In this document: piece after piece, positions 49,063-58,055 of the stretch
How the letters are laid out: the number at the start of each line of letters is the position of its first letter
How positions within the stretch are numbered: position 1 is the stretch's first letter
IMG/VR virus record: IMGVR_UViG_3300032164_000010
Coordinates: 2,861-66,860 of that record
Direction: 5' to 3' (one strand)
DNA: 64,000 nt
Origin: a virus
Notes under the pieces: generated by a model
Told to the model about the DNA's origin: nothing
Database searches by the model: none
The model's input: only the letters and a program-made list of their open reading frames with translations
Made by a program: the position numbers and the translations under genes

Positions 49063-50172
49063 TCAGACCTTCACCTGCGGGTTGAAGTGCTGGGTTGGGG
49101 GCAAGAGTGCCCCGCTGAATCCTGGGACCGGCCCGAGGACGTTCAGGGCCGCGGTCACCTGGGCCATCCAGGTGACGAAGTCCACACTGTTGCGCAGAGC
49201 AGGGGCTATCGGCACCTGGCCGATCTCCACCATGGGGGCCTTGAGCTTGGCGCTGGCTGGGGCCAGGGCCAGTTGAGTGCCACCTGACGCGAGGGTAATC
49301 GCAGTGGGAGCTGAAGCCTCCAGTGTGCTCTTGGAGGTGAGCTTCATGGACTGGGCGGTGGCCTCCATCTTCCCCTTCATGGTGGCGACAAGATCCCCGG
49401 TGATGTCGAGGGTCACATTGCGCTCGATCTTCCAGGAGACATCTCCGGTCTTGGTGATCTTGAGGGTCGTCTTCTCGACTCCCCCACCTTTATCGCGGGT
49501 TTGCAGGGTCAGGATAGTGTCGTCCGAGCTCCCGTGGGAACCGAATTTCAGGAAGGCGACGGGCTTCTCGTTGGGGTCATCCGCGAACTCCTTGCAGGCC
49601 AAGGTGTATGAGGTGCCCCTGTGTCCATCTGCGTCTTCGTCCGTACGGGCCACTTCCCAGGTGAGATCTCCACCAGGCGTGTGCAGGCCATAGTTCTCGG
49701 CCATGTCTCTGATGTAGTTCCTGATGGGGATGTAGATGCGCTGGCAGACCGGCCCCGACCCAATCTGAACGATGCCTCCACGTCTGATGGCGAGGAAGTT
49801 CCCATCCCGGGTGGAGAAGTGTAGATCGCCGGGGTTCAACAGCGGCCTGCCTGAACGGAACGACCCCTCTTCCCACTGCACGGTCCACCCCATCACGAAG
49901 GAGCGGAGACCTTCCTCGGATGGTGTAGCCAGCCAACAGGTGGACCCCACCTCCGGCATGAAGTTGATACCCTCGCCGTTGGCGTGATGAGCGTAGGGCA
50001 CCATGAAGGAGATGTTGAGCCGCGGTGTGTACGTGAACTCGGTGCGCACATCGACCGTGTACTCGTCCGTGTTGACCGTGAGGACTAGAGCCCTCTCGAT
50101 CTTCGCCGGCACCGGCGTTGGCATGCCGGCCATCGAGTAGGAACGAACAGGTCTCTGGCCTAGCGTCGTCAT
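49063..50172 (-). CDS. baseplate spike/gpV-gp5-like protein
   Basis: N-terminal OB-fold-like YTVDV...GINFMPEVGS..W; beta-repeat C-terminal region. Confidence 0.65.
   Translation of the reverse strand: MTTLGQRPVRSYSMAGMPTPVPAKIERALVLTVNTDEYTVDVRTEFTYTPRLNISFMVPYAHHANGEGINFMPEVGSTCWLATPSEEGLRSFVMGWTVQWEEGSFRSGRPLLNPGDLHFSTRDGNFLAIRRGGIVQIGSGPVCQRIYIPIRNYIRDMAENYGLHTPGGDLTWEVARTDEDADGHRGTSYTLACKEFADDPNEKPVAFLKFGSHGSSDDTILTLQTRDKGGGVEKTTLKITKTGDVSWKIERNVTLDITGDLVATMKGKMEATAQSMKLTSKSTLEASAPTAITLASGGTQLALAPASAKLKAPMVEIGQVPIAPALRNSVDFVTWMAQVTAALNVLGPVPGFSGALLPPTQHFNPQVKV

Positions 50173-58055: not shown

Follow-up and report, generated by a model that had tools for sequence, protein, structure and literature searches.

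The window analysed here is a 64,000-nt stretch of viral DNA (positions 2,861 to 66,860 of IMG/VR record IMGVR_UViG_3300032164_000010), taken from one viral contig of 66,860 bp with an estimated completeness of 32%. It encodes a streamlined single-chain bacterial-type RNA polymerase (RNAP) whose catalytic core, beta and beta', is contained in one open reading frame (ORF) (50172..58055, minus strand; 2627 aa counted from ATG 58055). The chain carries an intein in its catalytic NADFDGD motif, lacks the beta' zinc-binding domain of bacteria and belongs to a clade of phage enzymes that lies outside the sampled bacteria. The whole reading, in which the intein is removed by splicing, a phage sigma factor directs the enzyme and the enzyme is packed into the capsid, is given a probability of about 0.6.

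Domain architecture of the fused RNA polymerase

The true start of the RNAP is probably GTG 58019, which lies 12 codons after ATG 58055 and has GAGGAG upstream. This start gives the 2615-aa protein found in a public protein collection (P0002). Pfam places Rpb2_3, Rpb2_6 and Rpb2_7 in the beta part at residues 364-993 (Rpb2_6, E = 2e-57) and Rpb1_1 and Rpb1_2 in the N-terminal part of beta' at residues 1158-1434 (Rpb1_2, E = 3.1e-22). These are followed by LAGLIDADG_3 at residues 1703-1765, together with a Hom_end match, and then by Rpb1_3, Rpb1_4 and Rpb1_5 at residues 1966-2526 (Rpb1_5, E = 1.3e-23). Rpb1_1, Rpb1_3, Rpb1_4 and Rpb2_7 score under the Pfam cut-offs, yet all are correctly ordered.

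The beta-homologous part (about residues 1-1042; 54930..58055, minus strand) was delimited by the Rpb2_3/6/7 matches, alignments and motif coordinates, and it contains GRHGNKA at residues 816-822. In an alignment of 67 rows, made up of the phage clade, other phage RNAPs and 30 bacteria, beta passes into the beta' N-terminus at about residue 1043 without a linker. The junction (residues 1037-1056; 54888..54947, minus strand) is seamless when aligned with bacterial beta and beta'. The catalytic NADFDGD (residues 1427-1433; 53757..53777, minus strand) forms the end of the N-extein. The C-extein holds the rest of beta' (residues 1943-2627; 50175..52229, minus strand), as located by Rpb1_3/4/5, PDB matches and motif positions. 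It includes the bridge helix, a trigger loop without a lineage-specific insertion and the second zinc site (C2269/C2331/C2338/C2341). With NADFDGD, GRHGNKA, the bridge helix, the trigger loop and all four Cys of the second beta' zinc site present, the catalytic set is complete.

The best 60 solved-structure matches listed by sequence are all bacterial beta' chains, with E values down to 3e-110, from bacteria that include Streptomyces, Thermus, Bacillus, Mycobacterium and E. coli. For residues 960-1433, a 24-row alignment gave an AlphaFold2 model (mean pLDDT 83.5, pTM 0.73) that resembles the beta' N-terminal region of bacteria (Foldseek E about 1e-26, TMq about 0.56). The preliminary description of this DNA had reported ordered beta and beta' motifs in one ORF and 2118 aa after intein removal; the Pfam order agrees with this, as does the consensus restored by excision.

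The alignment was scanned for columns that are filled in at least 80% of the bacterial rows and at most 20% of the phage clade. The only phage-clade deletion of more than 10 columns relative to the 30 bacteria is the beta' zinc-binding domain. In place of its 32 columns (Salmonella beta' 67-98, which include four Cys), the window RNAP has TDVGK at residues 1095-1099. The deletion site consists of 10 residues (1093-1102; 54750..54779, minus strand) between GLFDPKITGG and WSHITLAEP, and Cys is absent from residues 1080-1115 around it. The loss of this domain, already noticed in the preliminary description, is therefore well founded. It is common to Salmonella phage Arash, Vibrio phage D69 and split metagenomic forms of the enzyme, and is not seen in Yersinia phage YerA41, Cobetia phage Carin-5 or bacteria.

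The beta' clamp helices (residues 1237-1280; 54216..54347, minus strand) are the predicted sigma docking site. A phmmer alignment matches them collinearly to E. coli beta' 265-309, with a gap of one residue. They have I, L and V where E. coli beta' has R275, E295 and A302, which we take to be contacts of sigma70. The preliminary description had called the sigma-binding coiled coil divergent; the helices are collinear and differ at these three positions. The beta flap tip (residues 751-769; 55749-55805, minus strand) is retained according to the alignment, whereas it is deleted in YerA41 and Carin-5.

Intein in the catalytic motif

The intein (509 aa, residues 1434-1942; 52230..53756, minus strand) was delimited using the Pfam LAGLIDADG_3 and Hom_end matches and the same-site inteins of relatives. 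NADFDGD joins its downstream partner only once the intein is removed, and the 509 residues are lacking in intein-free relatives. Excision restores the family consensus NADFDGD-TMSAF and leaves a mature protein of 2118 aa. The intein begins with Ser1434, has SSDH at the block B position, is followed by Thr1943 at +1 and contains two LAGLIDADG motifs (GWFLGAIIGDGW and LFAGLLDTDGT). It therefore has the residue-1 nucleophile, the block B His, the two motifs and the +1 Thr of a class 1 intein with LAGLIDADG features. Its C-terminus is Trp-Asp and departs from the His-Asn of that class. The same intein type occurs in relatives with Ala at position 2 (P0006) and with Cys at position 1 (P0121); therefore, position 1 is the likely nucleophile.

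A pattern-based survey covered 120 RNAP members (P0001 and 119 other cluster representatives). At least 34 have an insertion at the NADFDGD site, namely the window RNAP and at least 33 other cluster representatives, 78 are uninterrupted and the pattern left 8 unresolved. The ends of 30 same-site inteins were resolved as [WY]D (17), SN (10) and HN (3). Since the Trp-Asp type persists in an otherwise conserved catalytic loop, the intein is predicted to be able to splice.

Asn, and not Asp, precedes the intein Cys in 10 of the 30 resolved same-site inteins (NADFDG-N-C...[WY]D-T), at a site equivalent to window 53757-53759. The relatives concerned are P0063, P0082, P0093, P0094, P0099, P0102, P0104, P0111, P0114 and P0118. 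Canonical splicing would give NADFDGN without the third catalytic Asp in these proteins; therefore, this intein type may have unusual boundaries or chemistry. Insertions, presumably inteins, also recur at hot spots near positions 400, 801, 1095, 1420 and 1855 of the reference protein P0047, which correspond to about residues 415, 815, 1110, 1433 and 2380 of the window RNAP. One member (P0068, 3705 aa) has six insertions, each of at least 120 residues. An HNH endonuclease ORF in the structural block (22671-23504, minus strand) is a homing element additional to the LAGLIDADG domain of the intein.

Family size, phylogeny and origin

A protein search returned 1451 clusters with E values of at most 0.001. 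The best 120 of the 1451 are 43-100% identical to the query and mostly about 2100 aa long, with many lengthened by one to several inteins, and they lie on contigs of up to about 220 kb. An identical RNAP protein is found on a 121.5-kb contig (121,539 bp), the longest of its cluster. In IMG/VR, at least 478 stretches encode relatives of this RNAP. Among cultured phages, the nearest relatives are Vibrio phages D69, D181 and D148 and Salmonella phage Arash, with 29-32% identity over the large piece of their split RNAP. The best matches among bacterial rpoBC, with one genome per species, have 24-30% identity and are spread across Planctomycetota, candidate phyla, Bacillota and Pseudomonadota. Two phage-like contigs in metagenome-assembled genome (MAG) bins, L100 (204 kb) and L101 (163 kb), are better matches than bacterial rpoBC and span the full fused query.

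Trees were built with FastTree and IQ-TREE (LG+G4, quick search) from about 1940 columns. The viral rows were 27 of 80 viral loci plus L003, L004, L100, L101, Arash, D69, Carin-5 and YerA41. The 30 bacterial rows were hand-picked from the 80 loci most similar to the query (of at least 591), with a bias to the Candidate Phyla Radiation (CPR) and Bacillota. The trees have no archaeal outgroup and no reliable root, their support values are quick ones, and 34 rows were flagged for unusual composition by both methods. In both trees the 30 bacteria lie on one side of a branch with a support of 100, and 34 phage rows (27 fused and 7 split, including Arash and D69) form one clade, also with a support of 100. 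L100 and L101 branch within this phage clade in both trees, YerA41 and Carin-5 form a separate long branch, and the fused L079 is left outside the main clade at a weak support of 69. The window RNAP is a member of this Arash-like clade, being monophyletic with Arash and D69, with beta fused to the N-terminal part of beta', the zinc-binding domain lost and the gene placed beside the portal gene. Because the split forms are nested among fused forms, full fusion would be the more parsimonious ancestral state of the clade; gain and loss of the fusion are inseparable without a reliable root.

The contig itself is not chimeric. GC content is even along the window. The genes of window 13.4-64 kb follow, one by one, the order of those at 97-147 kb of a 191,126-bp phage record (G001), and their proteins are 30-78% identical. 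The G001 RNAP is 61% identical to that of the window. A megablast of window 44000-64000 against a phage collection gave no match; therefore, there is no close cultured relative. A chimeric or contaminated contig was considered and ruled out by the uniform GC content, the collinearity of about 50 kb with G001 and the conserved module.

The preliminary description had proposed that the RNAP was captured from a bacterium. Such a capture is neither excluded nor supported by the 24-30% identity and the position of the clade outside the 30 bacteria, and recent capture from an identifiable donor is contradicted. The origin of the phage RNAP is old and its donor is not identifiable. The idea of a recently captured bacterial rpoBC, or of a bacterial fragment mis-joined to phage DNA, draws on the order of beta then beta', as in bacteria, and on the bacterial source of all the best PDB matches listed. 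It would also suit the presence of L100 and L101 in bacterial MAG bins, yet these contigs, of 204 kb and 163 kb, span the fused query over its full length and branch in the phage clade. A recent capture or mis-joining is also hard to reconcile with 50 kb of collinearity with a 191-kb phage record at uniform GC content, with a module conserved across 80 viral loci and with a phage clade separated from the 30 bacteria with a support of 100 in both trees. It is thus very improbable.

Predicted sigma factor and other possible partners

There is no recognisable sigma, alpha or omega gene in the 66.8-kb contig. Pfam Sigma70_r2 is without a match, and tblastn of the G001 sigma and of Arash gp196 against the contig gave chance-level matches (E of at least 0.56). 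The lack of a recognisable alpha or sigma gene in the window, as first described, is therefore confirmed; since the contig is about 32% of the genome, the absence of sigma from the window is uninformative.

The search for partners covered five complete or near-complete records (G001, G002, G003, Arash and D69). Sigma70_r3 is over the Pfam cut-off in all five, in ORFs of 239-301 aa, and Sigma70_r2 is over the cut-off in Arash and D69 only. Neither alpha (PF01000) nor omega (PF01192) was found in any of the five records, and the controls were positive in 14 of 14 named genomes. The Arash Sigma70_r3 match is the gene for Gp10, a protein detected in virions. In the 286-aa G001 sigma, region 3 passes the cut-off, region 2 is weak and a helix-turn-helix lies at the C-terminus. 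Homologues of this sigma fall into 115 clusters, 8 of which have longest contigs equal in size to those of RNAP clusters, which suggests that these eight sigma and RNAP clusters sit on the same contigs. The sigma-like proteins of the RNAP family share an N-terminal VLDxxLLxKEAG segment that precedes the sigma regions (L089:1036-1896, minus strand; alignment columns 1-30).

A complex of the G001 beta' N-region (P0047 residues 1036-1425) and the G001 sigma was modelled. The ipSAE values are 0.64, 0.67 and 0.63, and those of three controls are all 0.00. For comparison, 58 of 80 solved complexes reach this mark, as do 2 of 110 mismatched pairs. At least 36% of contacts are common to the runs, and the partner pLDDT is at least 64. 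The modelled interface joins P0047 residues 1222-1260 (clamp helices) to sigma residues 97-115 and 143-148.

Independence from host sigma, as suggested in the preliminary description, is probably right. Since the relatives carry their own sigma-70-like protein, this independence does not come from a factor-free enzyme. It is also conceivable that the fused chain is a replacement core that joins host alpha2, omega or host sigma into a hybrid enzyme. The core lacks little of a minimal bacterial beta-beta' other than the zinc-binding domain, and with alpha and omega missing from the searched phage genomes, the host would be the sole source of these subunits if they are needed. However, the family has a conserved cognate phage sigma, which the complex model places on the clamp helices; at three positions there, presumed to contact sigma70, the residues differ from those of E. 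coli. An identity of 24-30% to any bacterial core makes conserved alpha interfaces unlikely, and phiKZ/AR9-type enzymes work without alpha. A hybrid enzyme is therefore considered quite unlikely.

A short motif, GNBATAAG, is possibly used as a promoter element by this system. The window has 15 copies of it versus 6.2 +/- 2.5 expected, and 0 of 100 shuffles reached 15. The copies span window 68-62509; 13 of the 15 are on the plus strand, and many lie, by position, just before plus-strand ORFs. GGGATAAG is enriched upstream of G001 genes (5 vs 0.4 expected). GNBATAAG/GGGATAAG is thus a candidate promoter motif.

Probable packaging of the enzyme

The synteny set consists of 80 loci kept from the IMG/VR scan, and flanks were counted where at least 5 kb was present on that side. 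Of 65 related loci, 56 have a portal homologue upstream of the RNAP gene. Downstream, a gene for a spike-like protein is found in 41 of 59 loci and a conserved 698-aa protein in 47 of 59. The order in the window is portal, RNAP, spike-like protein, 698-aa protein, C39 peptidase and SNF2 helicase, in a tightly packed operon. The minus-strand block also encodes tail sheath, major head and minor head proteins and the large terminase.

The available text of the Arash paper gives spectrum counts for purified virions (PMC10585845). The RNAP protein Gp206 is the most detected (3516), above the major capsid protein, and is accompanied by Gp216 (1210), the helicase Gp217 (1148) and the sigma Gp10 (467). 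Because the order of portal, RNAP and Gp217-like helicase is kept in a tightly packed operon, the balance leans, by analogy with Arash, towards packaging of the RNAP in the virion of the window's phage. The possibility of packaging raised in the preliminary description is therefore plausible, given the abundance of the Arash homologue in virions and the conserved order of portal, RNAP and spike genes, and it stands as a deduction.

The same enzyme could also remain unpackaged. It would then be made after infection and would read middle and late genes with the phage sigma, leaving the early ones to host RNAP, and its place in the virion module would reflect late co-expression alone. The long minus-strand block that holds the RNAP gene does include head, sheath and terminase genes; however, the placement beside portal is conserved in 56 of 65 loci. 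GNBATAAG is found mainly at the head of non-structural units on the plus strand and not upstream of the RNAP gene, and no targeting signal was seen in the RNAP N-terminus. In the available text, the Arash authors allow that abundant enzymes might co-purify, although Gp206 exceeds even the major capsid protein in detection (PMC10585845). A phage with one RNAP and its own sigma also gains most by bringing the enzyme in. An unpackaged enzyme is therefore regarded as rather unlikely.

Proposed mechanism

The domain architecture, the intein, the missing zinc-binding domain, family membership, synteny and the partner genes present or absent in relatives are direct results; splicing competence, sigma dependence, packaging and timing of the enzyme are inferred. 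Beta is fused head-to-tail to beta', and since the RNAP lineage is without alpha or omega, the fusion probably takes over the assembly role of the alpha dimer. The RNAP would be active only after the intein leaves the Mg-binding NADFDGD loop. A phage sigma-70-like factor, encoded elsewhere in a genome of about 200 kb and outside the 66.8-kb fragment, would guide the core to phage promoters by docking on the clamp helices and probably the flap tip. The RNAP gene heads an operon in the virion module, and the enzyme would most likely be packed into the capsid and delivered with the DNA, where it could start phage transcription independently of host RNAP. G001 has a single RNAP copy, and a second (non-virion) RNAP set was looked for in G001 and not found. 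As the sole RNAP of the lineage, the enzyme may also be made anew for later genes.

Several points weigh against this mechanism. The intein ends in Trp-Asp rather than His-Asn, and its splicing is assumed from conservation. The sigma gene is not seen on the DNA of the window's own phage, and the 121,539-bp longest contig of this RNAP's cluster is matched by no listed sigma cluster. The complex model was built from the proteins of a relative (G001) and not from those of the window. Since sigma/beta' complexes have already been solved, the favourable scores may reflect a likeness that the model remembers from those structures. For packaging, the co-purification allowed by the Arash authors in the available text (PMC10585845) applies here as well. 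Packaging in any fully fused member is also deduced from Arash, whose RNAP is about 25-32% identical.

A bolder version of the mechanism can be put forward tentatively, and it is more likely wrong than right. Here the enzyme would be the smallest known transcription machine of the sigma-dependent cellular type, a holoenzyme of two polypeptides, with one beta-beta' chain and a sigma of about 280 aa, and without alpha, omega or the zinc-binding domain. It would be packed with the SNF2 helicase, injected and used to run the whole programme. In this member and at least 33 other cluster representatives, the intein would hold the enzyme inactive until splicing, as a possible gate for timing or quality.

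Neighbouring genes

The portal protein gene (62510..64000, minus strand) is cut by the contig end, and its product is 32% identical to the Arash gp204 portal. Between portal and RNAP is a class II (B12-type) ribonucleotide reductase with a TSCPD domain (59762..62446, minus strand). A ribonucleotide reductase is found at this site in just 1 of 65 loci; therefore, it is a recent insertion into the virion module. The gene is sub-lineage-specific and is not a part of the RNAP module.

The RNAP stop codon shares 1 nt with the ATG of the next gene (49063..50172, minus strand), which encodes a Phage_base_V/gp5-like protein of 369 aa and is translationally coupled to the RNAP by this overlap. The PHROG match of this protein to baseplate assembly is weak (E = 1.5e-4). 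The ESM Atlas clusters it with Phage_base_V at 0.95-0.96 and gives gp5/VgrG-like structural neighbours. There is thus moderate support for a baseplate spike-like protein, and to the same degree PHROG and the ESM Atlas back the earlier placement of the RNAP in a virion gene block beside a baseplate spike gene.

The conserved 698-aa protein (46965..49061, minus strand), located downstream of the RNAP in related loci, has no PHROG or Pfam match and no usable ESM Atlas match, and its function is unassigned. The RNAP operon also encodes a C39-type papain-like peptidase of 245 aa (45528-46265, minus strand); the homologous ORF in G001 has 758 aa. An SNF2-type helicase (43280..45541, minus strand) follows in the operon and is a homologue of Arash gp217 with 37% identity.

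Significance

The phage-encoded cellular-type RNAPs known so far are either highly split and sigma-less (phiKZ/AR9) or bare two-barrel enzymes (crAss, YonO). The RNAP described here is a near-complete bacterial-type core in one chain that is very common in uncultured phages and for which a small cognate sigma appears to suffice. It provides a minimal expressible model of beta/beta' assembly and of initiation without alpha, omega or the zinc-binding domain, and it may be an orthogonal sigma-dependent transcription system. As a clade that is sister to the sampled bacteria and not nested among them, it adds a new deep branch to RNAP history. If the bolder version of the mechanism is true, splicing could gate the timing or quality of the RNAP before packaging. 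The cultured relatives, Arash and the Vibrio phages, make packaging and promoter use directly testable. No paper describing a fused beta-beta' phage RNAP with a sigma was found, in a search that did not cover subscription journals and left supplementary files unopened. A paper on 'moraphages' (PMC12619734) was considered as a description of this lineage and rejected, as its text states that they have no RNAP genes.

Comparison with known systems

The RNAPs of Arash (Gp206 and Gp216) and of Vibrio phages D69, D181 and D148 are in the same clade as the window RNAP in both trees. Arash and D69 also have beta fused to the N-terminal part of beta', a deleted zinc-binding domain, an RNAP gene beside the portal gene, a homologous helicase and a Sigma70_r3 protein. 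They differ in that one gene encodes the part through the catalytic motif and another the C-terminal part of beta', which in Arash lies nine genes downstream. The window ORF is continuous, with the whole beta-beta' in one chain plus an intein, and is 25-32% identical to the Arash and Vibrio enzymes. The available text of the Arash paper labels the genes as beta and beta' subunits and makes no mention of fusion or domain loss (PMC10585845).

The bacterial core RNAP (alpha2-beta-beta'-omega) and the window RNAP share all domains in order, including NADFDGD, GRHGNK, the bridge helix, the trigger loop, the second zinc site, the clamp helices and the flap tip. In contrast to the bacterial enzyme, the window RNAP is a single chain without the zinc-binding domain, the records of its relatives are without alpha or omega, and it is 24-30% identical and outside the bacterial clade.

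Fusions of rpoB and rpoC occur in Helicobacter and Wolbachia. A further bacterial fusion, L153, has beta and beta' in one ORF in the same order as the window, but it keeps the zinc-binding domain, has a linker and branches inside bacteria. The window RNAP is encoded on phage DNA and branches outside the sampled bacteria. L153 comes from a MAG labelled Gammaproteobacteria and branches with CPR-like rows; its rpoB-rpoC product has at least 2002 aa and represents a cellular fusion independent of the phage one.

The phiKZ/AR9 enzymes, as described in the available text of two sources (PMC7598289, PMC7824862), are also phage-encoded multisubunit-type RNAPs that lack alpha and omega. One of the forms travels in the virion to transcribe early genes and has an associated SNF2-type helicase. 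However, the same sources describe 4-5 polypeptides in two sets, no sigma homologue and far greater divergence, whereas the window RNAP is one chain, G001 has one copy and the relatives have a sigma. Enzymes of the phiKZ/AR9 type are absent among the 40 protein-search rows and 60 PDB rows listed. Other phage RNAPs among the listed matches, from YerA41, Carin-5 and Rhizobium and Ralstonia phages, are far weaker (E 1e-13 to 1e-26). The accessible part of a 2026 review describes jumbo-phage RNAPs without sigma homologues (PMC13282480), and the 2020 and 2026 reviews, to the same extent, state that jumbo phages without an RNAP usually encode sigma factors (PMC7598289, PMC13282480). The window's lineage has both an RNAP and a sigma, unlike this pattern.

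YerA41 (L188) and Carin-5 (L187) resemble the window's phage in that they encode bacterial-like beta and beta', and Carin-5 has an adjacent sigma gene. Their subunits are encoded by separate genes in the order beta' then beta, with the zinc-binding domain kept and the flap tip lost. The crAss-like gp66, the P23-45 tape-measure fusion and YonO have both catalytic barrels in one polypeptide and, as far as the accessible accounts go, are packaged in crAss and P23-45. These enzymes keep little beyond the barrels, whereas the window RNAP is a full-length beta-beta' homologue.

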